Origin: Gammaproteobacteria bacterium
GTDB taxonomy: Bacteria; Pseudomonadota; Gammaproteobacteria; Steroidobacterales; Rariloculaceae
DNA length: 64,000 nucleotides
Reading direction: 5' to 3'
Assembly: GCA_963665575.2 (NCBI GenBank)
Contig: CAXXDW010000006.1
Span: 1,201,122-1,265,121, forward strand
The notes beneath the pieces were generated by a model. It was not told the DNA's origin. It worked only from the letters and a program-made list of their open reading frames with translations, and ran no database searches. Position numbers and translations under genes: made by a program. Shown here one piece after another: positions 4,435 to 24,932 of the stretch (its first letter is position 1; every line of letters starts with the position of its first letter).

Positions 4435-5748
4435 GTGGAACTCGGAATGCTTCGGATTATCCTTGTGTTCGGTCTCGCAGCCGGTATTGCCGCTTGCAGT
4501 TCGATGCCGCAGCAGAGCCAGCAGGGTTCGCAGGGTTCGCCGAGCCAGCCGAGCCCGTCGAGCAGCGGGCCGAGTTCCCCGTCCGGCGGTCAAAGTTCCC
4601 CCTCGGGCGGTCAGAGTTCGCCCGCCGGTGGCCAGAGTTCGCCCGCCGGTGGCCAGAGTTCCCCCTCGGGCGGACAACCGGGTCCGCAAAGTTCGACCCC
4701 GTCTCCCTCGTCGGGTATTCCGTCCCCGCCGTCGTCGGGTATCCCTTCTCCCTCGTCAGGCATCCCGTCTCCCTCGTCCGGCATCCCATCGCCGTCCGCG
4801 GGGATCCCGTCCCCGCCGAGTTCGCAGGGTCAGAGCGGTCAGTCGGGATCGGACTCGCAGCGCGCTTCGACTGATGGCGATTCGGCAGACGGCCGGCAGG
4901 CTCGGAGCGGCGGTCCGGATCAGCAGGGCGGCGACAGTGCCGATGGTCAACAGGCCCGGACCGGCGGACAGCAGGATCAGGACGGTGCCGGCGGACAGCA
5001 GGATCGGGCGGGCGCCGGGGGCGAGGAACAGATTGCCGGATCCGGCGGCGAGGACGACGCTGCCGGGGCTGGTGGCGACGAGCAGCTCGCCGGAGCTGGC
5101 GGCGAGGACGATGCCTCGGGTGCCGGCGGCGATGAGGAATCCGGTGGATCCGGCGGCGAGGAAGAGCTTGCCGGAGCCGGCGGACAGGAAGAAGGCGACG
5201 GCGCCGGCGGCGACTCGCGCGTCGCTTCGGCCGGCGGCGAGGAAGGCGTTCCCGGCGGCGCTGAGGGCGACGGTTCCGGCGTCGAGGAAGGCGTTTTCGG
5301 CGACGGCAGCCAGGCGTCGACGGGTGCCGGCGGCGAGGATGCGTTCGACCGCTCGCTCGAGGATTTCGATGCGATCCTCGGTGCGGAACAGGAAGTGCTC
5401 GCCCGTACGGGCACGGGCACGGCCGCTGATCAGGTGTTCTCCGATGCTGCCGGGATCGGCGGCGTAGTCGGCGGCATCGAGGGTCTCGCACCCGGCAGCG
5501 ATCAGCAGGACGAGGAGGCGACGGGCGGCAGCGTCGGCGCCACTGTATCGTCGGGCGCGCGCACGGCCGAGCGGCGCCCCCCCGACTTTGTTGGAGACGA
5601 ACCCGCTGCGGCAATCGAAGGCTGCAACGATGAAGACACGGTCGCGCGGCAACTGTGTGAGCTTGCTACCGACGAGGAAGATCCGATTCTTCGCGAGCAG
5701 CTCTGGGAGGAATACAACGAGTACCTCAAGATCGTTGCGCGACAGTAG
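4435..5748 (+). CDS. repeat-rich, intrinsically disordered lipoprotein
   Basis: Strong SD AAGGAGG precedes GTG 4435. Lipobox LAAGIAAC. In-frame tandem repeats: GGQSSP(S/A) x5, SSGIPSP x5 and about 10 acidic GAGGE(D/E) units. Conserved-looking C-terminus: EGCNDEDTVARQLCELATDEEDPILREQLWEEYNEYLK. Confidence 0.7.
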   Translation: MELGMLRIILVFGLAAGIAACSSMPQQSQQGSQGSPSQPSPSSSGPSSPSGGQSSPSGGQSSPAGGQSSPAGGQSSPSGGQPGPQSSTPSPSSGIPSPPSSGIPSPSSGIPSPSSGIPSPSAGIPSPPSSQGQSGQSGSDSQRASTDGDSADGRQARSGGPDQQGGDSADGQQARTGGQQDQDGAGGQQDRAGAGGEEQIAGSGGEDDAAGAGGDEQLAGAGGEDDASGAGGDEESGGSGGEEELAGAGGQEEGDGAGGDSRVASAGGEEGVPGGAEGDGSGVEEGVFGDGSQASTGAGGEDAFDRSLEDFDAILGAEQEVLARTGTGTAADQVFSDAAGIGGVVGGIEGLAPGSDQQDEEATGGSVGATVSSGARTAERRPPDFVGDEPAAAIEGCNDEDTVARQLCELATDEEDPILREQLWEEYNEYLKIVARQ

Positions 5749-5763
5749 GTGGGAGAAGGACTT

Positions 5764-7104
5764 ATGCACCGAATTTTCATAATTTTGATCGGGCTGTATG
5801 CGCTGTCAGCCTGCACCACATCGGAAGTGCTTGTGGCTCACTCGGTCGATCTCGAGTCGAGCGTGCAGGCGATTCCCGAGGCGCAGTTGCTCGATGTCGG
5901 AATCGTGGTTTTCGACCCCGGCGTGCCCGCGGGCGAGATTCCCGAGGCGGAAGTCGAGCAATTGATGGCCGAGGGCAGTTTCCCGCAGGTGCGCCGTGCG
6001 GAAGCCCTGTACATGGCCGTGGAACTGCGCGACACGCTGCAGCAGAGCGGTCATTGGGGCGGCGTCTGGGTCACACCCGAAGAGTCGACGGCGTCTGACC
6101 TCAACGTGACCGCCGAGATCATGCAGTCCGACGGCGCGACCGTGCGCCTGCAGGTCGAGGCCAGGGACGCTTTGGGCCGCGTCTGGCTCAACGAGCCCTA
6201 CGAGCTTGAAACTGCGGCAGGCGTTTACAACCGTGGACGTTATCCGGACAAGGACCCGTATCAGGACCTCTTCAACTCGATCGCCAACGATCTCGCCGAG
6301 TTGCGCGCTGAACTGTCCGCCGACGAGGCGAGCGAAATCCGCACAGTCGCCGATCTGCGCTATGCGTCCGAACTGAGCCCCGACGCCTTCGACGGCTACG
6401 TCGTCGTGAACCGCGGCGGCGAATTCGAGCCCGTTCGCCTGCCTGCCGCCGGCGATCCGATGTTCGATCGCACGCAGCAGATCCGGCAGCGAGAGCAATT
6501 GTTCTTCGACACGCTGAACCAGCACTATGCGAGTTTTTCCGCCGACGCCGGGGAGTCCTACGACAGTTGGCGGGAGTACGCGCGCGAAGAGGCGATCGCG
6601 ATCCGCGAGATCACGCGCCAGTCCCGCTGGCAAACGGGCCTTGGCATCGCAACGATCCTGGCGGCCATCGCCTACGGTTCGAACTCTTCCAACGACGCCT
6701 ATTCGGACTACCTGATCCAGCAGGGCGTCACCTACATCGGCATGGAGATGATCCGTTCCGGTGCGATCAGGCGCCAGGAGAGACGCCTGCACACCGAAAC
6801 GCTCGAGGAGTTGTCGCTGAGTTTCGACGAATCCGTCGAGCCGCTCGTGGTCGACATCCAGGGCACGCAGCACCGCCTGACCGGTACCGTCCAGACACAG
6901 TACGCGGAGTGGCGCGAACTGCTCAAGGAACTTTTCGTCAGCGAGACGGGTTTCGCACCGGAAAATCTCGACGTCTACATGGAAGCCGAGACGGAACCGG
7001 CCGAAGAAGTACAGTTGCTCGAAATCGACGTAGCTCCCGGCGCTGACGCGGACGCCGAGGAAGGCGTGACCGATGCGGACGGGGGCGCGGCCAGCGGAGT
7101 CTAG
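5764..7104 (+). CDS. hypothetical lipoprotein with one internal hydrophobic segment
   Basis: ggagaagga SD lies before ATG 5764. MHRIFIILIGLYALSAC lipobox. Hydrophobic stretch WQTGLGIATILAAIAYG. It starts 16 nt after the preceding gene ends. Confidence 0.65.
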   Translation: MHRIFIILIGLYALSACTTSEVLVAHSVDLESSVQAIPEAQLLDVGIVVFDPGVPAGEIPEAEVEQLMAEGSFPQVRRAEALYMAVELRDTLQQSGHWGGVWVTPEESTASDLNVTAEIMQSDGATVRLQVEARDALGRVWLNEPYELETAAGVYNRGRYPDKDPYQDLFNSIANDLAELRAELSADEASEIRTVADLRYASELSPDAFDGYVVVNRGGEFEPVRLPAAGDPMFDRTQQIRQREQLFFDTLNQHYASFSADAGESYDSWREYAREEAIAIREITRQSRWQTGLGIATILAAIAYGSNSSNDAYSDYLIQQGVTYIGMEMIRSGAIRRQERRLHTETLEELSLSFDESVEPLVVDIQGTQHRLTGTVQTQYAEWRELLKELFVSETGFAPENLDVYMEAETEPAEEVQLLEIDVAPGADADAEEGVTDADGGAASGV

Positions 7105-7242
7105 GCGCCTGCGGCGCAGGGTCCCGGGAGCCCGCGGCAGAACGCGGCGGCGCAACCGGGTCGGTGCGTCGCCCGATCGTCCGGATGCACCCGCCTTGCA
7201 GAATCTGCATCTGCGACTGATGCGCAGTCCGGTCCGGCCGAG

Positions 7243-8130
7243 GTGGATCGGCGGGTGAATTCGGCCAGACTGCTGCGAACGTTTCCAAAACCGGCGTCTC
7301 GATCGACCGGGAATCCTTTTGGCGGTCTGGAGGTTCATCTCGAACGACGCCTCGCTACCGGCCGCATGACCGAAGTCTGGTTCGGTTGCGCTGGCGGCGG
7401 GCATCCACGCGCGATCAAGACGCTCAAGCCCGTCTGGCTTGCGAAGCCCGGCGCCCGGGCAAAACTGCAGCGCGAGTACGAATTGCTTCGGAGCCTGCGG
7501 CATCCGCACATCGTCGGCGCGCAAGCGTTTATTGACGAACCGGATTGCGCGGCGATCGTTTGCGAGTATCTTGGCGGCGGCGACCTCGTGAGCCTCGCGG
7601 GCGCTCCCCCGCGCCACTGGATCGCCGCCGTGCGCGATGTGCTCGCTGCGATCGAGTACCTGCATGACCGCGGTTTGGCGCATCGCGACGTCAAGGCGCG
7701 CAACGTGATGTTCGACGGCGAAGGCCGGGCGCGCCTGATCGATCTGGGCTCCGCGGCCCGCATCGGCACGGCATGGACGCAGCACGGCACAACCGCGGCA
7801 CATCGGCCCGCGCAGCCGCGGTCAGGCCGCGTGGGCGCGGAGCAGGACCTCTACGCATTCGCCGTGCTGCTTTGTGAACTCCTGTCGGGGCGGCTGCCAT
7901 TCGCGGAGGAGCCCGGCGCCGACGCCGGGGCGGATACGCCGTGGCTGACGTTCGAAACCAACGGCAGCCTCGAACCCGCGGCCCAATGCAAGGACAGCCC
8001 GGAACTCGACGCGCTCGGGCAACTCGTGCTTGCGGTGCTTGCTCCCGGCGGCGGGCCTGGAGTCGGCAGCGTATCGCAGTTCTCCAATGTCATAGAATCA
8101 GTGTTCGCCAGCGAGTCCGAACAGCCGTGA
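7243..8130 (+). CDS. Hanks-type serine/threonine protein kinase (kinase domain only)
   Basis: RAIKTLKP (subdomain II Lys), EYELLRSLRHPHIV, HRDVKARN catalytic loop (7681-7704), DLG (DFG equivalent), DLYAFAVLLCELLSGRLPF (subdomain IX). No TM segment or extra domain. The start codon is uncertain. Confidence 0.8.
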   Translation: MDRRVNSARLLRTFPKPASRSTGNPFGGLEVHLERRLATGRMTEVWFGCAGGGHPRAIKTLKPVWLAKPGARAKLQREYELLRSLRHPHIVGAQAFIDEPDCAAIVCEYLGGGDLVSLAGAPPRHWIAAVRDVLAAIEYLHDRGLAHRDVKARNVMFDGEGRARLIDLGSAARIGTAWTQHGTTAAHRPAQPRSGRVGAEQDLYAFAVLLCELLSGRLPFAEEPGADAGADTPWLTFETNGSLEPAAQCKDSPELDALGQLVLAVLAPGGGPGVGSVSQFSNVIESVFASESEQP

Positions 8131-9632
8131 CCGAACGAGACCCGAGCCCGCAACACGAACAGACCATCGTCGCGGTCAAGCCGGGGTTCGGCGCCGCAAA
8201 GCGAGGGTCCGCCAAGCCGAGTCAGGCGAAACGGCGGCTGCCGTGGCTCGCTCTTTCAGCCGCGGGCCTTGTTTTGCTCGCTCTGGCCGTGTTCTTCGTG
8301 CTGCCGAACTGGGTCGAGGAACAGTCGGCGAACACGCCCGTAGAGGCGCCGGCCGCCGTCGCGGCGCCCGAGCCCGCCGGTCCGGTCCTGTCCGAAGAAG
8401 AACTCGCTGCACTTGAAGCTCGGGCAGAGTCGCTGTTGGCCGCGCTGTTGCCGCAGCAGGCGCGGCTCGAGGAGTTGTCGGCGTCCGTTTGGGGCGGTAC
8501 GCAATGGGAGCGCTACGAGGAAACGGCGCGCGGCGCCGATGACGCGCTGTTGGCCGATGCCTTCGCCGAAGCCGCGACGGCGTATGAGGCAGCGCTTGCC
8601 GTCGGCGAAGGCTTGCTCGAGCGTTCCTACGAGATCATCCGTGCGGCACTGGACAGCGGCCGACAGGCGCTTGAGGCTGGCAATTCCGAGCTCGCGATCG
8701 AACAGTTCGACCTGGTGCTCAGCATCGAACCCGGCAACGCAGCGGCTCAAGCCGGTCGCGCGCGTGCCGGGCGTCTGCCCGAAGTCATCGAGCTGGTGCG
8801 CGAGGGCGACGAGCTGCGCCAGGGGCAGCAACTGGAGGCCGCCGCCGATGCCTACCGCGCGGCGCTCGCGATCGACGGACGCTGGGACCCGGCACGCGCG
8901 GCCCTGACTGCCGTAATGGCCGACATCGCGCGCTCGAGCTTCGATGCGCTGCTCTCGGAAGGCTTTGCGGCGTTGGCGGACGAGGATTTCGACGAAGCGC
9001 AGTCACGCTTCACCGCGGCGCTGGCCATGCGGGCGGACTCCAGGGATGCGCGTGACGGATTGACGCTGGCCGAGCAGGGCCTGGAACTTCAGCAGATCGA
9101 GATGGCCGAAGCCAGGGCGCTTGCCTTCGAACGACGCGAACTGTGGGATCGTGCGATTGCGCAGTACGAGTCGGCGCTTGCGGCCGACGCGACACTCGAG
9201 TTCGCGCTCGCGGGTCTTGCGCGCTCGCGCGAGCGCAGCGACCTCGACGCGAAGCTTGTGAACCTGATCGAGAACCCCGAATTGTTGTTGAGCGATACTG
9301 TCCTTGCGGAAGCCGAAGCGCTAGCAGAACAGGCGCATACGATTGCCGACCCCGGCGCGAGGCTCGACGGGCAACTCGTCCGCCTCGATGAGCTCATCCT
9401 GGCCGCGACGACGCCGTTGCCTGTGCAGCTTCAGTCCGATGAGCTCACCGAGGTCACCGTCTATCGCGTCGGCCAGCTCGGTACGTTCCTGGCGACGCAG
9501 ATCGAAGTCCGGCCGGGCAGCTACACGGTGGTTGGCAGCCGCAGGGGCTACAGGGACGTTCGCAAGACTTTCACTGTTCTGCCGGGCCGCGAGATGCCGC
9601 CGATCAGCGTCATGTGCGTAGAGCCGATCTGA
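8127..9632 (+). CDS. single-pass membrane protein with TPR-like repeats and a C-terminal PEGA-like beta domain
   Basis: GTG 8127 overlaps the kinase stop (GTGA). TM segment LPWLALSAAGLVLLALAVFFVL. At least 4 TPR-like units, e.g. ALEAGNSELAIEQFDLVLSIEPGNAAAQ and GQQLEAAADAYRAALAIDGRWDPA. C-terminus: IEVRPGSYTVVGSRRGYRDVRKTFTVLPG. Confidence 0.7.
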   Translation: MTERDPSPQHEQTIVAVKPGFGAAKRGSAKPSQAKRRLPWLALSAAGLVLLALAVFFVLPNWVEEQSANTPVEAPAAVAAPEPAGPVLSEEELAALEARAESLLAALLPQQARLEELSASVWGGTQWERYEETARGADDALLADAFAEAATAYEAALAVGEGLLERSYEIIRAALDSGRQALEAGNSELAIEQFDLVLSIEPGNAAAQAGRARAGRLPEVIELVREGDELRQGQQLEAAADAYRAALAIDGRWDPARAALTAVMADIARSSFDALLSEGFAALADEDFDEAQSRFTAALAMRADSRDARDGLTLAEQGLELQQIEMAEARALAFERRELWDRAIAQYESALAADATLEFALAGLARSRERSDLDAKLVNLIENPELLLSDTVLAEAEALAEQAHTIADPGARLDGQLVRLDELILAATTPLPVQLQSDELTEVTVYRVGQLGTFLATQIEVRPGSYTVVGSRRGYRDVRKTFTVLPGREMPPISVMCVEPI

Positions 9633-9652
9633 GCTGCGGAGGCCGGGAGCGG

Positions 9653-12091
9653 ATGAGCAAATCGAACGAGTGGATCCTGGCGACGAGCGAGTCGGGGTAC
9701 ACGCGGTATTTCGAAGCGGAGTCGCTGCCGGTCTCGATCGGCGGGAGCGGCGGCGACGATATCAGGCTCGGCGGCATTTCAGGCTCGGCGCAGATCGGTG
9801 TGCTCGACGGCGTCTTCTTCGTACAGGCGGGCCGGACCACGACCAACGTGCGGATCGGCGGCGAGCTGCTCAGAAGTTCGCGCCGGCTCGCCGACGGCGA
9901 CGTCATCGCACTGGACAGCGCTCGCCTGAACTGTGCCATCGCCGCCGGAAAGCTGACGGTGTCGATCGAAGCCAGGGTCACCGCGGGCGACACCGCACCG
10001 CCCGATCTCGAGGAACTCGCGCGTGCCGGCGACGAAGGCGGCGACGAGATCGCGATCGCGCCCGTCGCGTTTCGCTCCGGGGCGAGCTCGGCTCAACCGT
10101 CGCGTCCCAGGCGCCCGAGGGTGGCGACGATGGTCGTCGCGGCCGCATTCGCCGTGCTCGCCGTGCTCGGTTGGTTCGCGTTCACCGCGAAGTCCGTACA
10201 GCTCGTCTTCGAGCCGGCCGCCGACGAGTTCAGCCTGCCGTCAACCTTGTTCAAGTTTCAGCTCGGCGACCGGATGTTGCTGCGTTCGGGAACGCACCAG
10301 CTGGCCGCGCAAGTCGAGGGCTACTATCCCCTCGATACCACCGTCGAGGTCGGCCCGTTGCCCGATCAGTCCTTCGAACTCCCGTTCACGAAGTTGCCGG
10401 GCCTGATCACGCTTCGAACCGAGCCCGAGGCGGGCGCCGAAGCAAGCATTGAGGGCGAGCTGCTCGGCCAGACGCCGCTCGTCGATTTCGAGCTGGAACC
10501 CGGGGTGCACCGCATCGAGTTTGCGGCAGACCGATATTTGCCGGAGGTTCGCGAGCTCACGGTCGAGGGCGGCCGCGAGCGCCAGTCGCTGACGGCGGAG
10601 CTTACGCCGGACTGGGCGCCGGTGACGATCAGCAGCGTCCCGCCGGGCGCCGACATCGTCGTCGACGGTGAAACCGTGGGCGTCACGCCGACCGAAGTCG
10701 AGATCACCGCCGGCGAGCGGCGCATCGAGGTCCGGCTCGGCGGCTACAACGCCTGGGGCATGCTGCTCAATGTCGTCGCCGACAGCGCACAAAGTCTGCC
10801 GCTCATCACCCTGGATCCGGCCGACGGGCGCATCGAACTCGTCAGCGTCCCGAGCGAGGCGGCCGTGAGCGTCAACGGCGAGTACCGCGGCCGGACGCCG
10901 CTCGAACTTCGCCTTAGCCCGTCACGTACGCACGAGATCGTGCTGAGCCGGCCGGGCTATGTTTCACGAACTCTCGAGTTGTCGGTCGCCGCCGACAGCG
11001 GACGCGTCGTGGAGCTCGAACTCGAGGCTCAATTGGGCGAGATCGTCGTGCAAAGCACGCCGCCCGGTGCCGAGATCTGGGTCGACGGCAACCGCGAGGC
11101 CTCCACGCCCGCAACGCTCAATCTGCTTGCGATCAGTCACGACATCGAGATTCGTCAGATCGGTTACGTGCCGCAGGGCGCCGAAGTGACTCCGCGGCCC
11201 GGGTTTACCCAGACGCTCGATTTCGATCTCGAGGTGCTCGACGACGCCTCCGGCAGCGGCTATCCGCGCATCGTGCAAACGGCGATCGGGCAGGAACTCA
11301 GGCTCGTACCCGCGGGTACGTTTTCGATGGGCTCGTCGCGGCGCGAGCAGGGACGCCGTTCCAACGAGACACTGCGCGACGTGCAGATCAGCCGCGCCTT
11401 CTATCTCGGTGTGCGCGAAGTCAGCAACGCCGAGTTTCGGATGTTCCGTCAGGAGCACTATTCGGGCGAGTTCGCTAACACGTCGCTCGACGGCGACGAG
11501 CAGCCCGTGGTTCGGGTGACCTGGGAAGACGCCGCAATGTTCCTCAATTGGCTCAGCGCGCGCGACGGGCTGCAACCTGTCTACGCGCCGACGACGACCT
11601 CGTGGGCGCCGATCCGGCCGATCAGGAACGGCTACCGTTTGCCGACCGAGGCGGAGTGGGCCTGGGCGGCGCGCGCCGCGGAACGCGACGAGCCGCTGGT
11701 CTATCCCTGGGGTCCGCAACCGCCGCCGCCGGATCGCTCGGGCAACTACGCCGACCTGTCGGCAGCCGCGATCCTGCCGACGACCCTCGTGACCTACAAC
11801 GACGGGTTCGCGGTGACCGCGCCCGCGGGCAGCTTCGAGCCGAACGTGCTCGGCATTTTCGATCTGGGCGGCAATGTGTCGGAGTGGCTGCAGGACTTCT
11901 ACGAGGTCAGGGTCATCGCGCCGGAGACCCTCGAGATCGATCCCCTGGGGCCGGAAACCGGCCGGTTCAACATGATTCGGGGCGCGAGCTGGCGCAGCGC
12001 CACCGTGACGGACCTCAGGCTCGCCTACCGCAACTACGGATCCCAGCCTCGCGAAGATCTCGGTTTCCGTATCGCGCGGAATCTGGAATGA
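9653..12091 (+). CDS. FHA - TM - multiple PEGA - FGE/SUMF1-fold (formylglycine-generating-enzyme-like) protein
   Basis: gggagcgg SD before ATG 9653. N-terminal FHA (LPVSIGGSGGDDIRL...GGELLRSSRRLADGDVIAL). TM segment VATMVVAAAFAVLAVLGWFAF. At least 4 PEGA units (VPPGADIVVDGETVGVTP, VPSEAAVSVNGEYRGRTP, TPPGAEIWVDGNREASTP...). C-terminal FGE fold: LVPAGTFSMGS...PVVRVTWEDAAMFLNWLS...GYRLPTEAEWAWAAR...GNVSEWLQD...IRGASW...LGFRIAR. Confidence 0.85.
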   Translation: MSKSNEWILATSESGYTRYFEAESLPVSIGGSGGDDIRLGGISGSAQIGVLDGVFFVQAGRTTTNVRIGGELLRSSRRLADGDVIALDSARLNCAIAAGKLTVSIEARVTAGDTAPPDLEELARAGDEGGDEIAIAPVAFRSGASSAQPSRPRRPRVATMVVAAAFAVLAVLGWFAFTAKSVQLVFEPAADEFSLPSTLFKFQLGDRMLLRSGTHQLAAQVEGYYPLDTTVEVGPLPDQSFELPFTKLPGLITLRTEPEAGAEASIEGELLGQTPLVDFELEPGVHRIEFAADRYLPEVRELTVEGGRERQSLTAELTPDWAPVTISSVPPGADIVVDGETVGVTPTEVEITAGERRIEVRLGGYNAWGMLLNVVADSAQSLPLITLDPADGRIELVSVPSEAAVSVNGEYRGRTPLELRLSPSRTHEIVLSRPGYVSRTLELSVAADSGRVVELELEAQLGEIVVQSTPPGAEIWVDGNREASTPATLNLLAISHDIEIRQIGYVPQGAEVTPRPGFTQTLDFDLEVLDDASGSGYPRIVQTAIGQELRLVPAGTFSMGSSRREQGRRSNETLRDVQISRAFYLGVREVSNAEFRMFRQEHYSGEFANTSLDGDEQPVVRVTWEDAAMFLNWLSARDGLQPVYAPTTTSWAPIRPIRNGYRLPTEAEWAWAARAAERDEPLVYPWGPQPPPPDRSGNYADLSAAAILPTTLVTYNDGFAVTAPAGSFEPNVLGIFDLGGNVSEWLQDFYEVRVIAPETLEIDPLGPETGRFNMIRGASWRSATVTDLRLAYRNYGSQPREDLGFRIARNLE

Positions 12092-12145
12092 TCTGCCATT
12101 GGCGCGGTCTAACGTGAGTGTTCGCACCCGGTGCGAGGAAGAGCG

Positions 12146-12382
12146 ATGAATACGATCCGGATACTTTTCGCGGTACTCGGCCTGAGCCTGGTCGCGCTCG
12201 CGACGATCGGCCAGGAAGCCGAGGGCGAGCCCGAGAGCCCGCCTCCGGCCGCCGGGGAGTCTGAGGCAGAGCCCACCGTGGAGCCTGCCGGGGAAGCTCC
12301 GCGAGGCACTTCCGATGAAGTGTTCATTCCGACCGTCGAGGTCCAGGCGGACGAGGAAGTCGTGTTTCCGGTGGACATCTAG
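12146..12382 (+). CDS. small secreted acidic protein
   Basis: gaggaagag SD before ATG 12146. Signal-like MNTIRILFAVLGLSLVALATIGQ, then an E/P/A-rich region and a C-terminal EVFIPTVEVQADEEVVFPVDI. Confidence 0.5.
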   Translation: MNTIRILFAVLGLSLVALATIGQEAEGEPESPPPAAGESEAEPTVEPAGEAPRGTSDEVFIPTVEVQADEEVVFPVDI

Positions 12383-12487
12383 CGCGCAAATCTCACCAAG
12401 CCTTCGCTTCTCTCTTGCCCGGGGGTGCCGCTTGGCGCTCGGCCGGGAAACTGACGGCGGACACCATACCTTGAGGACCCTTGCAAG

Positions 12488-13294
12488 ATGAGACGTACTT
12501 TTTTCGGCGAATTTCTCTTTCAGGCATTTGCGCTGATCGTCATGGTCATTCTCGTGCATGCGTTCTACGTGACGAGTGTGCGGCCCAATGCGACGTCGAT
12601 TCTCGAGGAGCAGGCGCTCAGGATTCAGCAGGAGGAGAACTACACGCCGGAACGCTCGTTCTGGGTGCTCATCAGGGACTTCGAGCAGGAAGCCTGTTTC
12701 ATCCTCATGTTCTGGGCGTTCGCGATCATGGGTTACAAGGCCGTCTTCATGTACAACGAGCGAACCTTGTTGCAGCGGGAGTTCCTGCCGGTGCCCGACG
12801 GCGTTCGAATACTTCCCGAAGACACGCGCGAGTACGGTCGCGCGATCGAGTCGCTGCCCGAACGGGTCAGGGCCATGCTGCTGCCCCGCGTGCTCTTGTC
12901 GTCGCTCGAGCGTTTCGGGTCGACGCGCAACGTTCAGGATGTGTCGTCGGTGGCGAATTCACTGTGCGAGGCCGAGGGCGAGCGGCTGGAGTCGGAGCTG
13001 TCGATGATCCGCTACATCGCCTGGGCCATACCTTCCGTGGGGTTCATCGGCACCGTACGGGGTATCGGCCAGGCGCTCGGCGAAGCGCAGCGCGCCGTCG
13101 AAGGGGACATCGCGGGCGTTACCGAGAACCTCGGGGTGGCATTCAACTCGACGTTCATAGCGCTTTTGATTTCGATCGTCGTCATGTTCCTGGTCCACCA
13201 GTTGCAGTTGTTTCAGGAGCGTCTCGTGTTCGATACGCAGACCTACGTCGACCACAACCTCATACGCCACATGCGAAGCCGCGGCGCCACCTAG
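12488..13294 (+). CDS. MotA/TolQ/ExbB proton-channel family protein
   Basis: Four predicted TM segments. The family signature lies in the last two helices (IPSVGFIGTVRGIGQAL ... GVAFNSTFIALLISIVVMFLV). A loop of about 100 aa sits between TM2 and TM3. Confidence 0.85.
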   Translation: MRRTFFGEFLFQAFALIVMVILVHAFYVTSVRPNATSILEEQALRIQQEENYTPERSFWVLIRDFEQEACFILMFWAFAIMGYKAVFMYNERTLLQREFLPVPDGVRILPEDTREYGRAIESLPERVRAMLLPRVLLSSLERFGSTRNVQDVSSVANSLCEAEGERLESELSMIRYIAWAIPSVGFIGTVRGIGQALGEAQRAVEGDIAGVTENLGVAFNSTFIALLISIVVMFLVHQLQLFQERLVFDTQTYVDHNLIRHMRSRGAT

Positions 13295-13308
13295 CCGAGC
13301 GAGGGGAG

Positions 13309-14709
13309 ATGCCTGCACGCGCGATCGAAATCAACGATGCCGGCCTTGTCGTCGCCGATGCGTCGGGCATCCTGGCCGTCGAGCCGGGCTATGCGCTGGT
13401 CGAGAAGGGCGCGATCACGACGGGATTGCAGGCATACGGGCAGGCGCGTCTGAAACCGCGCCAGGTCAGCAACAGCTTCTGGTCAAATCTCAGTCTGGAG
13501 AAGGGCAGTGCGGGCGTTGAGGGCGCGCCAAACTCCGCGGAACTTGCCTACAAACAGCTTGGCGCCCTGTGGAGCAGGTTCGCCGCCTCGACCGACGACG
13601 TCGTGCTCATCGTGCCGGGCCATTACGGTCAGGCCCAGCTCGGACTGCTGCTCGGTCTCGCCGAGGAGTGCGCGGTGCCGGTACGTGCCATGGTCGATGC
13701 TGCGGTCGCGGCAAGCCACCGGCCGTATCCCGGCCGCGAACTTGTCTACGTCGATGCGGGACTGCATCGGGTGTCCGTCACGGCGCTCGCGCAGGGCGAC
13801 GACGTGAGCGTGCGGTCCGAACAGCGCCTGGACAGCACCGGACTCGCCGGTCTCAATGATCTGCTTGCCCGGCGGGTCGCCGAGATGTTCGTGTTTGCGA
13901 GCCGCTTCGATCCGTTTCACGATGCCGCCAGCGAGCAGCTCCTCTATGACCGCTTGCCCGAATGGCTTGCGTCGCTGCACGAGCAGGGCTCGGCGGTGCT
14001 TGCGCTGCCGCACGGCGCCGATGAAGTCGAGGTTCAGATCGAGCGGGGACAACTGCTGAAGGTGGCGCTCGGCTTTTACAAGGCGCTGTTGCAGCTCATC
14101 GCACAAACGCGCGAGGCCCGATCGGGACTGGTCGTGCAATTGTCGGACCGGTTGGCTCGGTTGCCGGGAGTCATGGGTGAGTTGGCGCGCCTGGACGATT
14201 CCGAGGTGGTCGGTCTCGCGCCGGGGCACGCGGCCATTGCCGCGCTCGAGGGCTTCGCTGCAATGGACACGCGTAAAGGCGTGAAGCTGCTCCGACGCAT
14301 GTCCTGGCGCGCCGAGCCCGTGTCGGCTGTGGGGTCCGTGGCGGAAATCGCTGACACAGCGATCGCCGTGTCGGACACGCCCGTTCCGACCCATGTCGTC
14401 TATCGCGGCGTGGCGCATCCGGTCGACGGGGCGGGTCTCGTGATCGGCCGGTCCGGCGCCGAGGATCGGCAGGTCATCGTCGTGGACGATCAGCCCGGCG
14501 GCGTGTCCCGGTCGCACTGTGAACTCAGGCTCAGCAACGGCGAACTCAAGCTGCGCGACCTGTCGAGCTATGGTACTTTCGTGAACGAAAAGCGCGTCTC
14601 CGGAGAGGCTACGCTGCAGCCGGCGGACATCATCCGGATCGGCACTCCGGGCGCGGAGCTTCAGGTCGTAACGGTCAAGGCCCCGGAGCGGTCACATGGC
14701 ACGCCGTAG
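13309..14709 (+). CDS. actin/Hsp70-fold-like N-terminal domain fused to C-terminal FHA domain
   Basis: gaggggag SD before ATG 13309, internal to ORF 12481..14709. Hsp70-like strings: AIEINDAGLVVA, VLIVPGHYGQAQLGLLLGLAEECAVPVRAMVDAAVAAS, LVYVDAGLHRVSVTAL. C-terminal FHA: LVIGRSG...GVSRSHCELRLSNGELKLRDLSSYGTFVNEKRV...ADIIRIG. Confidence 0.75.
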   Translation: MPARAIEINDAGLVVADASGILAVEPGYALVEKGAITTGLQAYGQARLKPRQVSNSFWSNLSLEKGSAGVEGAPNSAELAYKQLGALWSRFAASTDDVVLIVPGHYGQAQLGLLLGLAEECAVPVRAMVDAAVAASHRPYPGRELVYVDAGLHRVSVTALAQGDDVSVRSEQRLDSTGLAGLNDLLARRVAEMFVFASRFDPFHDAASEQLLYDRLPEWLASLHEQGSAVLALPHGADEVEVQIERGQLLKVALGFYKALLQLIAQTREARSGLVVQLSDRLARLPGVMGELARLDDSEVVGLAPGHAAIAALEGFAAMDTRKGVKLLRRMSWRAEPVSAVGSVAEIADTAIAVSDTPVPTHVVYRGVAHPVDGAGLVIGRSGAEDRQVIVVDDQPGGVSRSHCELRLSNGELKLRDLSSYGTFVNEKRVSGEATLQPADIIRIGTPGAELQVVTVKAPERSHGTP

Positions 14710-15793
14710 GGAATTCAGCGTCATCTCGATGTCGTTTCTCGACGCGATGACCTGCGGTTTCGGCGCCGTGATCCTGTTTTTCATGATCATCACGGCCAAC
14801 ATCGATCTGAGGCGCGATACCGTGCTCGACGATGTGGCCGCCGAGGTCGACCGCATGGAAATCAGGGTCGTGGCCGGGCGCAGGAACCTCGTGCAGCTCA
14901 GGGAGGATCTCGCGCGCCTCCTCGAGGAGCGGTACACGACACGCGGCGTCAAGCAACAGATCATGGCGGAGATCGACACAACGCGCGAGGACCTGGTCAC
15001 GCAGGCCGAAGCCGCCGACATGCGCGACGATCTCATCGAGCAACTGCGGGCGGATCTCGCGGCCCTGGAAGAGGAGACCGAGCAACTCGCGATGACCGAC
15101 GACACGGCCGAAGAGGCGGGCGCCTCGATCCGCAGCGTACAGGGCGAAGGTTACCGCCAATACCTGACGGGGCTGCGCATGGGCGGACAGCGGATCGTCA
15201 TTCTCGTCGACGTCTCTGCGAGCATGCTCGACCGTACGCTCGTCAATATCATCCGCCGCCGCAACCTGCCTGACGTGCAAAAGCGCCAGGCGCCGAAGTG
15301 GCAGCAACTCGTCAACACCGTGGATTGGCTCACGGCGCAGATCCCGCCGGGTACGCAGTTCCAGGTGATCGCGTTCAACAATGAAGCCTGGTCGCTCGTT
15401 GAAGGGACCGACGGGCAGTGGCTTACGGCCAGCGACGCAAGTCAGCTCGACGAAGCCGTGCGCCGGTTGCGCGAGGAGACGGTCGCCGAAGGCCCGACGA
15501 GCCTGCACGTTGCGTTTCAGGCGGCAAGGCGCCTGCAACCCCGACCCGACAACATCTACCTGCTCGTCGACGGCCTGCCGACCATGGGCGGCGTCCAGCC
15601 GACCCGTAACGGCGTCACGAGCAGGGAGCGGCTCGGGCATTTCGAGCGCGCGACGCGCGAGCGGCCGATCGGCACTCCCGTCAACGTCATACTGCTGGCA
15701 ATGGAGGGCGACCCGCTCGCAGCGCCCGCCTACTGGCAGCTCGCGCTCGAGAGCGGCGGCTCGATGATGGCACCGGCGGAGGACTGGCCGTGA
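14696..15793 (+). CDS. ExbD/TolR-like TM anchor - coiled coil - von Willebrand factor A (vWA) domain protein
   Basis: Overlaps the upstream gene by 14 nt. N-terminus SVISMSFLDAMTCGFGAVILFFMII has a TM-proximal Asp (codon 14741-14743). A heptad-rich E/R/L segment follows. MIDAS motif DVSASM at 15209-15226. Confidence 0.8.
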   Translation: MARRREFSVISMSFLDAMTCGFGAVILFFMIITANIDLRRDTVLDDVAAEVDRMEIRVVAGRRNLVQLREDLARLLEERYTTRGVKQQIMAEIDTTREDLVTQAEAADMRDDLIEQLRADLAALEEETEQLAMTDDTAEEAGASIRSVQGEGYRQYLTGLRMGGQRIVILVDVSASMLDRTLVNIIRRRNLPDVQKRQAPKWQQLVNTVDWLTAQIPPGTQFQVIAFNNEAWSLVEGTDGQWLTASDASQLDEAVRRLREETVAEGPTSLHVAFQAARRLQPRPDNIYLLVDGLPTMGGVQPTRNGVTSRERLGHFERATRERPIGTPVNVILLAMEGDPLAAPAYWQLALESGGSMMAPAEDWP

Positions 15794-16800
15794 AAAAAAA
15801 GAAACGCCGCGGCATAGAGACGCTGAGCCTGTCGTTCCTCGACAGCATTTCCTGTGGTTTCGGGGCGATCATCCTGCTGCTCGTGATCACGAAGCTCTTC
15901 GAGCCGATCCGGCTCGAGGAGAGCAATCAGGAACTGGAGGGACTGCTCGCACGTTACGAACAGGAACTCACGGAGATACTCGGCGAGACCGAGACGGTGC
16001 AACGCGAACGCGTCACGACCGCCGAGACCGTCGAGGAAGACCAGGTCCAGGTCCTCGAGTTGCAGCAGGAACTCACGCGCATCCGTTCGATTCTGCTTGA
16101 CCGGGAGGACGACGAGACGGTCGCTGACGAACTCGCAGGCCGACTCGCGGCCGCCAAGCAGTCGCTGACAGAGGAAATGGAGCGCCTGCTCGCCAACCAG
16201 GTGCCCAATGTCGAGGACTACGCGATCGGCGGCGTTCCCGTCGACAGCGAGTACATCATCTTCATCATCGACACCTCCGGCAGCATGCGCAGTTACGCCT
16301 GGGACCGGGTCCAGCGGCAGATCAGCGAGACGCTCGACGTGTATCCCACCGTCAAGGGCATGCAGATCATCAACGACGAGGGGACGTATCTCTTCAGAAG
16401 CTATCGGGGCCAGTGGATACCGGATACGCCGGCCCGCCGGCGGGCAATCATCGATTCCCTGCCGAACTGGAACGCGTTCTCCGATTCGAGTCCGCGGGAG
16501 GGCATTCTCGAGGCGATCGAGAGGTTCTACGATCCCGAAAAGAAGATCTCGCTGTATGTGTACAGCGATGACTTCGCGCCGACATCGACGATTCGCCAGG
16601 TCGTGCGCGAAGTCGACCGGCGCAACAGGCGCGACGAGGATGGCAATCGCCGGGTCAGGATTCACGCGGTCGCCTTCCCGGTCTACTGGGACGTCATGGG
16701 CGACCTCGTCTCGTCCGCGCGCTACGCCACGCTCATGCGGGTGCTCTGTCAGCGCAACGGCGGAACCTTCGTCGCGCTGCCCTCGCGCCGCGACATCTGA
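15790..16800 (+). CDS. ExbD/TolR-like TM anchor - coiled coil - vWA domain protein (paralog of the preceding gene)
   Basis: GTG 15790 overlaps the upstream stop (GTGA). KKKKRR then LSLSFLDSISCGFGAIILLLVI (Asp codon 15841-15843). Coiled-coil segment. MIDAS motif DTSGSM at 16270-16287. Confidence 0.8.
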   Translation: MKKKKRRGIETLSLSFLDSISCGFGAIILLLVITKLFEPIRLEESNQELEGLLARYEQELTEILGETETVQRERVTTAETVEEDQVQVLELQQELTRIRSILLDREDDETVADELAGRLAAAKQSLTEEMERLLANQVPNVEDYAIGGVPVDSEYIIFIIDTSGSMRSYAWDRVQRQISETLDVYPTVKGMQIINDEGTYLFRSYRGQWIPDTPARRRAIIDSLPNWNAFSDSSPREGILEAIERFYDPEKKISLYVYSDDFAPTSTIRQVVREVDRRNRRDEDGNRRVRIHAVAFPVYWDVMGDLVSSARYATLMRVLCQRNGGTFVALPSRRDI

Positions 16801-17196
16801 ACGGCCGAACCTTCCGCCGGTGAGTGGCCGCGTCAGCGGTCGCAGTGCCGAGCGGGTTTCTGCCATGAACAGTCGGCAGCCGGCAAGCAAGAGTCCTGCG
16901 GCATGGCATGTGAAACGCCCTCGCCGACAGCGGCCGGTCAACGGGCGTTACCTTGAGTCCGAGTTGCATCGCGCGGCGCTTGGGTACACCCCGCGTTTTG
17001 CTTCTCGTGCCTTGTTTTGGTGCGCAATCCGGCGGGCTGCCTGCAGTGCGAGGTTGCCTCCCGACAGTCGATCCCGCCACTGGTCAGAATTGATCATCAT
17101 TCGGGCATGGTCCGGCCCGGATTCGGCCCGGAATTGCCTTGCCGCGGCGCTTCAATGGCAGGTGTCAGCAGACACCTGGACACAAAGGAGCGAACC

Positions 17197-17937
17197 ATGA
17201 CGAGAAACATACTGATACTGGCGTTGGCAGCCGGGCTTGCGAGCCCTGCCTGGACCGCCGAGAACAATGCCGCACCGAAGGAGGAGAGCATCGGCGTCGG
17301 CAGCGGCGTGGTCGTCGGTGCGCTCGCAGGCGGGCCGGTCGGCGCCATCGTTGGCGCCGCAATGGGCGGTTGGCTCGGCGACAAGTTCCACCGCGAGCGC
17401 TCGGCCAAGCTCGAGTTCGAGCGCCAGTCCGAACAGGCGCGACTCGAATGGGAGCGGGCGCAGCTCGAGGCCGATGAACTGCTCGCGAGGCTTGAGGAGA
17501 GTAACGCCGATCTCGGCCAGCTCAGGTCCGAGTGGCGCGCCGCGCAGGTGAACTACCGCAACGCGTTGCAGCAGGCGCTCGATACGCAGATCTACTTTCG
17601 CACCGGCGAGGCCGAACTCGAGGACGGAACTGGCGAACGCCTGAGCCGAATAGCCGGACTGATCGGCGAACTCGCCGATCTGACCGTCGTCGTCGAAGGC
17701 CATGCCGATGCGCGCGGCGCGGCGGACTACAACGAGCAGTTGTCGACTGCTCGGGCACAGGCCGTACGCGACGCCCTCGTGCGGGCCGGCGTCTCGCCGG
17801 GCCGGATCTTCTGGGTCGCCGAGGGCGAGCGTCATTCGACGTCCGATGAGAAGGACCTCGATGCCATGGCGCTCGACCGGCGCGTGAATCTGAGCATCGT
17901 GGACCGGAGCGCTGCGGACCGCATCGCGCAGCAGTAG
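17197..17937 (+). CDS. OmpA-family peptidoglycan-binding protein with glycine zipper and coiled coil
   Basis: aaggag SD before ATG 17197. Signal peptide MTRNILILALAAGLASPAWTA. Glycine zipper GVVVGALAGGPVGAIVGAAMGGWLG. Coiled coil ERQSEQARLEWERAQLEADELLARLEE. OmpA_C domain: IYFRTGEAEL...VVVEGHADARGAADYNEQLSTARAQAVRDALV...RRVNL. Confidence 0.85.
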   Translation: MTRNILILALAAGLASPAWTAENNAAPKEESIGVGSGVVVGALAGGPVGAIVGAAMGGWLGDKFHRERSAKLEFERQSEQARLEWERAQLEADELLARLEESNADLGQLRSEWRAAQVNYRNALQQALDTQIYFRTGEAELEDGTGERLSRIAGLIGELADLTVVVEGHADARGAADYNEQLSTARAQAVRDALVRAGVSPGRIFWVAEGERHSTSDEKDLDAMALDRRVNLSIVDRSAADRIAQQ

Positions 17938-17993: not shown

Positions 17994-18025
17994 GGGCCGC
18001 GTCAGGGATGGCGCGGCCCTTTCTC
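17994..18025. terminator. putative terminator hairpin between convergent genes
   Basis: gggccgcg (17994-18001) pairs with cgcggccc (18012-18019) and is followed by tttctc. It sits between the OmpA-like gene (+) and bioD (-). The U-tract is weak. Confidence 0.35.
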
Positions 18026-18716
18026 ATTCACGGGTCGCGTCGAGGTACGCTGCGACAAGCGGCAAGAGTTCTGGATACGCAGCATCATCGCCGCGCCGAC
18101 GGGGCAGGGCGATGATCGGCGTTGGAGCGAGGAAACGCTCGAGAACCTCGCGAGTCTCATCGAGCGGAACCGGCTGCTCGAGCGACTCGCTGACGATGAC
18201 GCCAGCGAGTTCGACGCTCTGCGCCCGGAGGGCCCCGGCCGCTGTCAGCGTATGGCTCAGGGCGCCGAGGTAGCTGCCCGTGACGAGCAGCGCGGGTGCG
18301 CCGAGCGCCGCGATCCAGTCGACGACCGTATGCCGCCCGTCGAGCGGCACCATGACGCCGCCGATCCCTTCGATGAGCGTCAGGTCGTAACCGTCGGATG
18401 CACGGCAGAAGCTCAGCAATTCGTCGAACGCAATGTGTATGCCTTCGCGCGCGGCCGCCATGTCGGGCGAGAGCGGCGCGGCGAACCTCCACGGCGACAC
18501 CGCGTCGAGCTCAGCGGTCGCGGGTTCAAGCCCTTGTGCGGCGAGCAGAAGGCCGGAGTCGCTTGCCTCGAGTTCGGCGGCGTCGAAGCCTGTCGCGACC
18601 GGTTTGAGGGTGCGCACGCCGAGCGATGTGCGGCTGAGTTCCTCGAGCAGCGCGCACATGACGAAGGTCTTGCCTACGCCGGTGCCCGAAGCCGTCACAA
18701 AGACCGTATTCTTCAT
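18024..18716 (-). CDS. bioD: dethiobiotin synthase
   Basis: C-terminal 230 aa of ORF 18024..19358, starting at MKNTVFVTASGTGVGKTFV (P-loop). Also ...LIEGIGGVMVPL... The upstream part of the ORF is an Arg-rich overlap with bioF and was rejected. Confidence 0.85.
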   Translation of the reverse strand: MKNTVFVTASGTGVGKTFVMCALLEELSRTSLGVRTLKPVATGFDAAELEASDSGLLLAAQGLEPATAELDAVSPWRFAAPLSPDMAAAREGIHIAFDELLSFCRASDGYDLTLIEGIGGVMVPLDGRHTVVDWIAALGAPALLVTGSYLGALSHTLTAAGALRAQSVELAGVIVSESLEQPVPLDETREVLERFLAPTPIIALPRRRGDDAAYPELLPLVAAYLDATRE

Positions 18717-18781
18717 TCGGCCGGATTCGGAGGACCGTGCGCCCCGACCGGCATCTCTCCGATGGCTCATCGGTCCCTTTG

Positions 18782-19942: not shown

Positions 19943-20055
19943 ACCTGTTCTCCGCGGCAGGGACGCTCGGATTGTCCCGAAAACAGGCGTTGGCTTCCAT
20001 GTAAGCGCCGAACCGCCGGTCGGCCTGCGAAACGGACGACCCGCTCGTGCGCACT

Positions 20056-21414: not shown

Positions 21415-21675
21415 TTCAGACGTCCCGTTACGCGTCAGAGCACAAGCGTGGATCGCGCGCCTCCCGGCATCGCCGTCGGCAATGGCAGACCTTTTCCCAT
21501 CCGAATCCACAGCCCGCGGTTGCCGCAGCCGAAGGCAGGCCAGTATAGCGGCAAGCTCCATATTCTTCCTGCGCGCGCCTCGCCGGACGGGCGCCTCGCA
21601 GGACTCGGTGCTTCGCGCGACTTCTGCCACGCGCTGCCGGGCACGAGATTGTCGTAGTATCGGCGTACGCTCGCC

Positions 21676-22929: not shown

Positions 22930-22945
22930 CTCGGGGCAGAGGTTC

Positions 22946-24796: not shown

Positions 24797-24932
24797 GGTC
24801 GTCTATTCCGTCGAGCCCGGCCCATCAGCCCGGTACATGCGAGTCGAGTGTTGACGAAAAGTTACAGCATTGCAATAGCTGTTGTTCTGAGCCAGCATTG
24901 CCCGGCTTGGCGTATAGGCAGGCGGCAATGCC

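Follow-up and report, generated by a model that had tools for sequence, protein, structure and literature searches.

A conserved gammaproteobacterial gene cluster that joins a MotA/ExbB-type channel to a pair of membrane-tethered vWA proteins

Do eleven tightly packed genes of a gammaproteobacterial genome encode a single envelope-spanning system and, if so, what kind of machine is it? The genes (G1 to G11) occupy 4447-17937 of a 64,000-nucleotide stretch that we call the window (GenBank assembly GCA_963665575.2, contig CAXXDW010000006.1, positions 1,201,122 to 1,265,121). Few systems are known to pass the ion energy of the inner membrane on to the outer layers of Gram-negative cells (Ton, Tol-Pal, the flagellar stator, GldLM, Agl-Glt, and Zorya), and each of these runs a major process. 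An earlier sequence-only reading of the cluster had proposed an undescribed system, in which a MotA/ExbB-family channel, an ExbD-like pair of von Willebrand factor A (vWA) proteins, and an OmpA partner are placed under kinase/FHA control.

We find that the cluster is indeed a coherent multi-compartment system around the channel (G7): its gene set and order are conserved, and the two vWA paralogs (G9, or vWA1, and G10, or vWA2) appear to take the place of ExbD/TolR/MotB. In our assessment it probably belongs with the 5:2 ion-driven envelope motors, with a mechanism that we infer from structure. The motor core was already proposed in 2025 (PMC12204202). What appears to be new is a fixed set of about nine genes, a co-varying phospho-module, a C-terminal motif in the small protein G6, and fusions of the vWA pair to BlaR1-type proteins.

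Organization and conservation of the cluster

The listing of open reading frames (ORFs) in the window and their translations give eleven co-directional genes on the + strand, packed exactly as the sequence-only reading had described them, with two GTGA overlaps (8127 and 15790) and one overlap of 14 nt (14696-14709). Gaps of 14-138 nt separate the other genes, except for the 393 nt ahead of the OmpA gene, G11 (assuming a start at 17194). We corrected the start of G8 to 13309, giving 466 aa; that of G11 is most likely the ATG at 17194, behind an AAGGAG ribosome-binding site. The G+C content of the window is ~66%, and its nearest relatives are metagenome-assembled genomes (MAGs) of Candidatus Rariloculus (Gammaproteobacteria), among them L003, which shares 97% of its residues at the protein level.

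In each of three scans of species-representative genomes, at least 576-598 relatives were confirmed, corresponding to several hundred species genomes, and ~240 loci from other genomes were examined among the matches listed (80 per scan, with a few contigs recurring in more than one set). The same gene order is kept throughout these sets. In the first (G9 identity 44-97%), the order G2-G3-G4-G5-(G6)-G7-G8-G9-G10-(G11) is co-linear in nearly every sufficiently long locus, and it is kept down to 44% identity, one Acidobacteriota MAG included. In the third set are 61 loci of full length from Alteromonadales, Cellvibrionales, and Halieaceae, and cultured strains account for many of them (Table 1). 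Because the same order recurs in ~240 loci, the cluster is a conserved unit; co-occurrence outside this genome, which the sequence-only reading had proposed to check by gene neighborhood, thus rules out chance juxtaposition.

Not every gene belongs to this fixed set. The kinase (G3) is missing from most Halieaceae, Cellvibrionales, and Alteromonadales loci of the second and third sets, and G11 is mostly missing from L060-L082 and missing from both of these sets. The two are clade-specific add-ons, and the OmpA partner that had been counted as a part of the system is not core. In distant loci, no conserved gene was seen downstream of vWA2. In a subclade of soil MAGs, the channel gene has been lost or moved from the cluster, and both Asp-bearing vWA genes are kept along with the rest.

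Housekeeping genes on the opposite strand stand on both sides of the cluster: a DUF4399 protein and a pyridoxal-phosphate (PLP)-dependent enzyme upstream, a dethiobiotin-synthase-like gene and bioA-type genes downstream. Throughout the Rariloculaceae-like clade, the cluster keeps these bio, DUF4399, and PLP-enzyme genes as neighbors, and no homolog was found in a plasmid collection; the locus is therefore a stable chromosomal one rather than a mobile island.

Table 1. Features of the cluster, in window positions, and the number of full-length loci of the third set in which each gene was found (TM, transmembrane; FGE, formylglycine-generating enzyme; MIDAS, metal ion-dependent adhesion site; AF2, AlphaFold2)
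Feature	Positions	Strand	Description	Evidence	Third set
G1	4447-5748	+	Lipoprotein, lipobox IAAC followed by SS	Translation, N-terminal hydrophobic segment	61/61
G2	5764-7104	+	Lipoprotein, lipobox LSAC followed by TT	Translation, AF2 model, Foldseek	61/61
G3	7243-8130	+	Cytoplasmic Hanks-type Ser/Thr kinase	Pkinase E = 7e-28; HRD and DLG motifs present; no TM	0/61
G4	8127-9632	+	Single-pass membrane protein, periplasmic TPR-like repeats and C-terminal PEGA/CarboxypepD_reg-like beta-sandwich	TM residues 41-59	61/61
G5	9653-12091	+	Cytoplasmic degenerate FHA-like domain, one TM, periplasmic PEGA x4, FGE-sulfatase fold	Pfam; TM residues 157-175	61/61
G6	12146-12382	+	Small secreted acidic protein	Signal-like N terminus; invariant extreme C terminus FPVDI	42/61 (detected; short)
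G7	12488-13294	+	MotA/ExbB/TolQ-family inner-membrane channel subunit, presumed pentamer	PF01618, family profile, multi-pass hydropathy	61/61
G8	13309-14709	+	Cytoplasmic Hsp70/actin-like (ASKHA) nucleotide-binding-domain fold, disordered linker, canonical FHA (GR...SRSH...N)	AF2, Foldseek, Pfam	58/61
G9 (vWA1)	14696-15793	+	Basic N terminus, Asp16 helix, ~100-residue coiled-coil stalk, vWA	Complete MIDAS	61/61
G10 (vWA2)	15790-16800	+	G9 paralog of same architecture	Invariant Asp18, MIDAS DxSxS	61/61
G11	17194-17937	+	Secreted; glycine zipper, coiled coil, OmpA-like peptidoglycan-binding domain	Pfam; NxxLSxxRAxxV motif present	0/61
Terminator-like hairpin	17994-18019	+	Closes the operon, 3' of the last stop codon	11-bp stem, 9 G-C pairs, T-rich tail	

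The motor core

G7 is assigned to its family by Pfam (MotA_ExbB, PF01618; E = 3.2e-14, 53 bits vs. a cutoff of 22.9). A direct phmmer search of the PDB with G7 found nothing, and with the family profile the best match is E. coli TolQ (8odt), at a marginal E = 0.012. Two Thr residues, T189 and T222, are invariant in 30 G7-family sequences, and in that same marginal alignment (E = 0.012) they fall on TolQ T145/T178, that is, on the pore-lining Thr pair of 5:2 motors (TolQ T145/T178; ExbB T148/T181).

By hhalign, G9 and G10 are paralogous from end to end (99.3%, E = 1.6e-20). Each begins with a basic tail followed by one TM helix with the motif SFLDxxxCGFGA, without His, and the Asp of this helix (Asp16 in G9, Asp18 in G10) is invariant in family alignments. 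The ~100 residues after the helix attract coiled-coil families (JetC in PADLOC, and Pfam coiled-coil families in homologs). The vWA domain that follows is found by Pfam VWA_2 in G9 (E = 8e-8) and weakly in G10; its MIDAS is complete and invariant in the former (D172, S174, S176, T268, D292) and largely kept in the latter (D161, S163, S165, D260). Exactly two ORFs with the Asp-helix motif are present per locus in 228/238 loci. The family is large: in a protein collection, G9 is represented by >5400 clusters at 90% identity, none with an informative name, and the vWA1 profile finds 2022 clusters at 50% identity.

Neither Pfam nor NCBIfam detects an ExbD, TolR, or MotB homolog among the eleven proteins of the cluster. 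When the two vWA families were compared by hhalign with sequences taken as those of E. coli TolR and ExbD, the Asp of G9/G10 came into register with TolR D23 and ExbD D25, at a non-significant E = 0.12-0.13.

Other proteins offer a different view of the pair. Among distant matches to the G9 profile, P0502 and P0504 consist of a BlaR1-type M56 peptidase (Peptidase_M56, E = 1e-17 to 1e-18) followed, in a single chain, by vWA1-like and vWA2-like domains; the C terminus of P0504 is 48% identical to G10 (E = 3e-63), and P0448 is a secreted vWA2-vWA1 fusion. The Asp helix and the coiled coil are both missing from the M56-vWA fusions; P0393 and P0464 belong with P0502, P0504, and P0448 to this set of matches. 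The fusions are independent evidence that heads of the G9/G10 type act as a pair. They show, too, that such a pair can stand where a signal transducer has its sensor, and it seems to be a reusable extracytoplasmic module.

Relation to a published in-silico family

An in-silico family with much the same core was described in 2025 (Mol Biol Evol 2025;42(6):msaf138; PMC12204202), in which a tolQ-like gene accompanies heterologous pairs of TM-tethered vWA proteins and tolR/exbD are absent. In that work, the vWA helix is a TolR/ExbD-like trans-pore helix with a conserved Asp, predicted to lie inside the pentamer; an AlphaFold 3 (AF3) model contains five TolQ-like subunits and two vWA helices, with Idiomarina loihiensis as the seed; the function is given as unknown and no phenotypes are reported. 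Here, too, a tolQ-like gene adjoins a heterologous TM-tethered vWA pair in Proteobacteria, tolR/exbD/motB are missing, the conserved Asp helix lacks the SHLS/His motif, and the Thr ring is conserved. Every defining feature given in the paper is found here; the assignment is made by described features and not by the seed sequence (no Idiomarina locus was among those examined, the best 80 of each of the three scans, and Alteromonadales relatives were present).

The difference is one of scope, because the paper covers the three motor genes only, without a function. Its main text and searchable supplement text make no mention of a kinase, FHA, a sulfatase/FGE fold, or Hsp70 (OmpA is mentioned with regard to Pal), and they are likewise silent on the lipoproteins, G4, G5, G6, and the OmpA partner. 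It was also the sole relevant paper returned by literature searches for the domain combination. The word "undescribed" in the sequence-only reading is therefore too strong for the three-gene motor core, whereas the other conserved parts do appear to be new.

Scaffolds and outer components

Nearly all of the domains that had been listed for the remaining proteins were recovered by Pfam or by AF2 modeling. Three fared less well, namely the FHA of G5 (marginal), the PEGA domain of G4 (sub-threshold), and the TPR repeats of G4, which Pfam does not detect. By hydropathy, G4, G5, G9, and G10 have one TM segment each, G7 has several, and G3 and G8 have none, whereas G1, G2, and G6 have signal-type N termini; the assigned compartments fit.

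In G4, the C-terminal 80 residues give sub-threshold matches, to PEGA in 12/28 members (lowest E = 4e-5) and to CarboxypepD_reg in 18/28 (lowest E = 2.5e-5). The periplasmic part of G5 is much clearer, with Pfam E-values of 8e-45 for PEGA x4 and 3e-40 for the FGE-sulfatase domain. Its N-terminal 110 residues, as a family profile against the PDB, have only FHA domains as best matches, at a marginal E = 0.006-0.06, and the domain is without the GR/SxxH/N phosphothreonine-binding residues. An "FGE-fold sensor" had been proposed for this protein. The fold stands, with sensing as a putative role; as G5 holds Ser and Val at the positions of the human FGE catalytic pair (C336 and C341), the domain is non-catalytic, a binding module like PorK/GldK or PvdO and not an enzyme; a catalytic formylglycine-generating enzyme was rejected on the same Cys pair. 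The best NCBIfam match of G5 is GldK (TIGR03525), with 106 bits vs. a cutoff of 350, and its similarity to PorK structures reaches E = 6e-15.

The cytoplasmic stretch of G5 that connects its FHA-like domain to the TM segment contains a conserved motif, TAGDT(114)APPDLEE (residues ~105-120; window 9950-10010). In 22 sequences, Thr114, Pro116, and Pro117 of this TxPP(D/E) motif do not vary. The motif may serve for docking or as a phospho-acceptor, a role for which the disordered linker of G8 is another candidate.

The actin/Hsp70 fold that had been read from the sequence of G8 was borne out by its AF2 model. Residues 1-330 have a predicted local distance difference test score (pLDDT) > 90, and the structures that it resembles most are nucleotide-binding domains of DnaK/Hsp70 (E about 1e-14; against 4rtf, TM-score 0.73 and root-mean-square deviation 3.7 Å). 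Its DxG loops (INDAGL and VDAGLHR), read from the sequence, are without the Gly/Thr-rich phosphate-binding residues of Hsp70. Because these loops are degenerate, G8 may be a scaffold rather than an ATPase. The FHA domain that follows the linker is found by Pfam at E = 6e-14.

Both lipoproteins are probably in the outer membrane, judging from the residue that follows the lipobox cysteine. G1, for which Pfam gives no match, has a long acidic low-complexity region, rich in Ser, Pro, Gly, and Glu, plus a conserved C-terminal segment, and its homologs in the third set lie upstream of G2. G2 has 730 homologs, none of them named, and belongs to no family in Pfam or NCBIfam; in its AF2 model (pLDDT 71), an alpha/beta domain is followed by a long helical hairpin, and its Foldseek matches are weak (TolB 4r40, E = 1.6e-3; LptE 8h1s_B, E = 2e-3; PelC 5t10).

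G6 is variable over its body and constant at its end, where the motif P(S/T)EEIxxDxxVxFPVDI is kept in all clades examined (homologs L003-L161). This C terminus could possibly be a short docking peptide, perhaps one that binds to the vWA MIDAS sites or to the TPR-like domain of G4. MIDAS sites typically bind acidic peptides, as established for integrin-type vWA domains, and TPR domains are able to clamp acidic peptides of this kind. Because acidic peptides suit both MIDAS sites and TPR clamps, G6 would be the leading candidate ligand of the vWA heads.

G11 has a signal-like hydrophobic N terminus visible in the translation and an OmpA domain at E = 2.5e-18; its glycine-zipper matches lie slightly under the Pfam cutoffs. 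Its best NCBIfam match is pdsO (TIGR03789), with 132.9 bits, under the cutoff of 152.2. The proteobacterial dedicated sortase system to which PdsO belongs was rejected on this score, with no sortase in the cluster.

A kinase/FHA module in some clades

In five distant relatives, the kinase and G4 form a single ORF that runs from the kinase through a TM segment and TPR-like repeats to a PEGA-like domain (L060:3070-5040, L061:2098-4428, L067:2646-5012, L076:2656-5010, and L078:3189-5492). Because the two share one polypeptide there, G3 and G4, which overlap by GTGA in the window, can be read as the two halves of a split receptor kinase, G4 being the putative ectodomain half. The fused protein of L078 has only a degenerate form of the catalytic HRD motif (HGHLHPGN), which points to a pseudokinase in this case.

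The kinase also travels with particular forms of the two FHA proteins. Counting only loci whose relevant interval is covered, the Ser/His/Asn phosphothreonine triad of the G8 FHA is present in 51/58 kinase-bearing vs. 2/59 kinase-lacking loci (Fisher p = 7e-23, uncorrected for phylogeny and with a signal from few clades), and the cytoplasmic FHA-like domain of G5 in 48/57 vs. 6/62. The strongest evidence at hand for a single regulatory module laid over the core, made up of the kinase, the canonical G8 FHA, and the FHA-like domain of G5, is this co-variation of three features. Kinase/FHA control, which the sequence-only reading had proposed, is thus supported for the window's clade by the fusions and by both sets of counts, and does not hold for the third set, where none of the 61 loci has the kinase.

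Comparison with known systems

The sequence-only reading had set the cluster apart from Tol-Pal, Ton, Mot, Zorya, Agl/Glt, GldLM, and Bat, and the defining features of each are indeed absent. Of the named systems that we compared, the family discussed above is the only one onto which the cluster maps, and it does so by its core. NCBIfam contains no family for G2, G4, G6, or G9, gives a weak sub-cutoff match for G10, and has sub-cutoff matches only for the others; PADLOC yields generic kinase and OmpA matches only.

TolQR-TolA and ExbBD-TonB share with the cluster a MotA_ExbB channel with two pore Thr residues, a partner with a TM Asp that would here, too, be a dimer, and an envelope-spanning logic, and the weak TolB-N/LptE-like fold of G2 is a further likeness to Tol. 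However, the cluster is without a TolA/TonB-type third subunit with an SHLS helix, and the periplasmic domain of the presumed dimer is here a coiled coil plus vWA, not the ExbD/TolR fold. TolA, the TolB beta-propeller, Pal, and CpoB were undetected with Pfam and NCBIfam (G11 scores 57.8 for Pal vs. a cutoff of 125), and there is no TonB or TonB-dependent receptor in the cluster. MotAB/PomAB resemble it in combining an ion channel with an Asp-bearing plug subunit and in peptidoglycan anchoring by an OmpA-like domain. In the cluster, by contrast, this domain belongs to G11, a secreted protein of its own that only some clades have, and flagellar genes are not nearby.

GldLM/PorLM are 5:2-type motors in which a dimer sends a long periplasmic shaft toward the outer membrane, and they work alongside a non-catalytic FGE-fold protein (PorK/GldK). 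No homology to GldL or GldM was found, and G5 is anchored in the inner membrane and is not a lipoprotein. GldK/PorK of the type IX secretion system was rejected for G5 because of the low TIGR03525 score, the internal TM segment, and the missing lipobox; GldLMN, PorN, SprA, and other genes of that system are not present.

For the regulatory part, the parallel is the threonine phosphorylation pathway of the Pseudomonas H1 type VI secretion system (PpkA-Fha1-PppA, TagQRST), where a receptor-type Hanks kinase and an FHA reader switch on an envelope machine. The likeness lies in a receptor-type kinase with a periplasmic domain, an FHA reader, and lipoprotein/periplasmic accessories. As an assignment it was rejected: TagH (TIGR03354) reaches 31 vs. 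a cutoff of 120 bits, and there is no PP2C and no core gene of that secretion system.

Agl-Glt of Myxococcus (AglRQS, GltG, CglB) combines a TolQR-like motor with an FHA-TM-periplasmic protein and vWA adhesion (PMC11761067). The layout of GltG, FHA-TM-periplasmic, is that of G5 (PMC11761067). The components are not orthologous, however: the vWA domain is here on the motor's own dimer, and the Glt outer-membrane barrels and MglA are not present. Zorya was rejected because PADLOC has no ZorA match for G7 and finds ZorB only weakly, at E = 9e-8 to 4e-3, in the OmpA domain of G11. Bat, MoxR-vWA, and vWA-MoxR ternary conflict systems are defined by a vWA protein partnered with a MoxR AAA+ ATPase (and DUF58, or a VMAP/STAND component; eLife 2020, PMC7159879), and no AAA+ or STAND domain is present in the eleven proteins or in the flanks.

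A motor within a larger envelope machine

Starting from what is observed in the sequences, namely their domains, conserved residues, and gene fusions, and the patterns of co-occurrence and co-variation, we think it fairly probable that the cluster specifies a 5:2-type motor, powered by protons (or ions), within a larger conserved envelope-spanning machine, with a kinase/FHA switch added in particular clades. In the 5:1:1 assembly that we infer, G7 would be a TolQ/ExbB/MotA-like pentameric channel in the inner membrane, and the Asp helices of G9 and G10 would sit together in its pore as a heterodimer, replacing ExbD/TolR/MotB. The putative ion pathway would lead past Asp16/Asp18 and the Thr189/Thr222 ring, and the flow would turn or pull the dimer relative to the pentamer. 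From each subunit of the dimer, a coiled-coil stalk of ~100 residues would reach far into the periplasm and bear a metal-dependent MIDAS vWA head at its end. These heads would hold on to acidic partners, for which the best candidates are products of neighboring genes: G6, through its FPVDI end, and the lipoproteins G1 and G2.

The other components can be fitted around this core. G4 (TPR-like, PEGA-like) and G5 (PEGA x4, non-catalytic FGE fold) would be periplasmic scaffolds anchored in the inner membrane, and G8 a cytoplasmic Hsp70/actin-like scaffold partner. In the window's clade, the G3 kinase and the G4 ectodomain would make a receptor kinase and thereby an added phosphorylation switch: G3 would phosphorylate a threonine on a cytoplasmic part, its presumed substrate, and the canonical FHA of G8 would read the mark, so that the motor is engaged or released. 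G11 would give peptidoglycan anchoring in trans. As the biological output, we favor the delivery of force to an outer-membrane or peptidoglycan target.

Several observations weigh against this interpretation. The homology of the N-terminal helix to ExbD/TolR is short of significance in the hhalign comparison, and a profile of the 44-residue trans-pore helix, searched against the PDB, found no TolR, ExbD, or MotB, its sole matches being chance ones to a complex I subunit; hence, the "ExbD-like" label that the sequence-only reading gave to the pair is based on where the helix lies and on its gene context, as homology could not be demonstrated; the Asp does fall into register. The TolQ match of G7 is itself marginal. 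Six loci (L031, L037, L042, L044, L046, and L047) have no MotA-like gene within 10 kb, even by an unfiltered search with hidden Markov models, and in a sister group (L050-L055, L073, and L159) the MotA-like gene is positioned after vWA2. The linkage of the vWA pair with the channel is therefore tight, though not absolute; both Asp residues are retained in the six channel-less loci and in the sister group. With regard to the switch, the co-variation statistics depend on few clades, and the cluster contains no phosphatase gene.

A more specific version is possible, and we put it forward tentatively. The cluster may be a hitherto unrecognized envelope machine of about nine conserved components, in which the dimer of an ion-driven 5:2 motor, with coiled-coil arms and metal-dependent vWA grips, pulls or turns outer-membrane lipoproteins and the FPVDI peptide; a kinase/FHA clutch would act on it in some lineages, and the vWA pair would have been reused in BlaR1-type transducers.

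Those same transducers bring up the first alternative, that the cluster is mainly a trans-envelope sensor, in which the vWA pair binds a ligand, the state of the channel changes, and the change is relayed via G8 and the kinase, as in trans-envelope signaling by ExbBD-TonB or in the relay of extracellular binding by BlaR1. The vWA1-vWA2 pair does hold the sensor position in the M56 peptidases P0502 and P0504, and a receptor-type kinase and FHA readers are at hand. Yet most family members, without a kinase and with a degenerate FHA, retain the channel, both Asp residues, and the MIDAS, and neither a transcription factor nor any other output gene is conserved in the cluster. We therefore regard a mainly sensory role as rather unlikely, although it would be compatible with a motor.

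It could also be argued, from the non-significant helix statistics and the six loci without an adjacent MotA-like gene, that the vWA proteins are membrane-anchored periplasmic adhesins or scaffolds like BatA/BatB, in which the Asp is otherwise used, and that G7 pairs with ExbD/TolR elsewhere. This is improbable given that an invariant Asp stands in the same register of the single TM helix of two paralogs across ~240 loci, that the MotA-like gene co-occurs in all 61 loci of the third set, and that the MoxR or DUF58 genes needed for a Bat operon are absent; an AF3 model of the family has, moreover, been published (PMC12204202). Very improbable, finally, is an anti-phage or conflict system, Zorya-like or of the vWA/FHA/kinase type that the sequence-only reading had been reminded of: G3 resembles the PADLOC defence kinases mad6 and PD-T4-6 by generic Pkinase matches, and the OmpA domain has its weak ZorB matches, but there is no ZorA, effector nuclease, protease, NTPase, MoxR, or STAND partner, the same housekeeping neighbors (bio genes, DUF4399, PLP enzyme) recur across many genomes, a plasmid copy was not found, and the component set is uniform rather than diversifying.

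If the more specific version with vWA grips is true, it would add a fourth route by which energy of the inner membrane reaches the outer envelope, after those of Ton, Tol, and GldLM. The vWA-motor family is widespread, without a curated name or phenotype, and its dimer subunit bears an adhesion domain instead of the usual fold. The published three-gene core is here enlarged to a fixed set of about nine proteins, with candidate ligands named, and the phospho-regulatory layer appears to be gained or lost as a unit across clades. Genetics is possible because cultured hosts carry the cluster, among them Congregibacter variabilis IMCC43200, Halioxenophilus aromaticivorans KU68F, many Microbulbifer species, Pseudoalteromonas denitrificans DSM 6059, and Haliea salexigens DSM 19537, so the function of the system is directly testable; among the loci examined, none with the kinase came from a cultured host.

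Noncoding stretches and neighboring genes

The 393-nt gap between vWA2 and the OmpA gene (16801-17193) is non-coding and without a consensus promoter, and Rfam matched no family in it or anywhere else in the cluster. It is far longer than all other junctions of the cluster, and G11 may be regulated separately.

Downstream of the cluster, the opposite-strand gene at 18024-19358 (-) encodes a 444-aa protein with a dethiobiotin-synthase-like AAA_26 domain that is confined to residues 217-408, and its N-terminal 216 residues have no Pfam match. This gene adjoins the bioA-type genes and is syntenic with the cluster in many relatives. Three + strand ORFs (19307-20419, 20437-21657, and 22892-25024) have no Pfam match at E <= 0.001. 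The last of these may be a spurious high-GC ORF, and the first two are kept beside the cluster in relatives.

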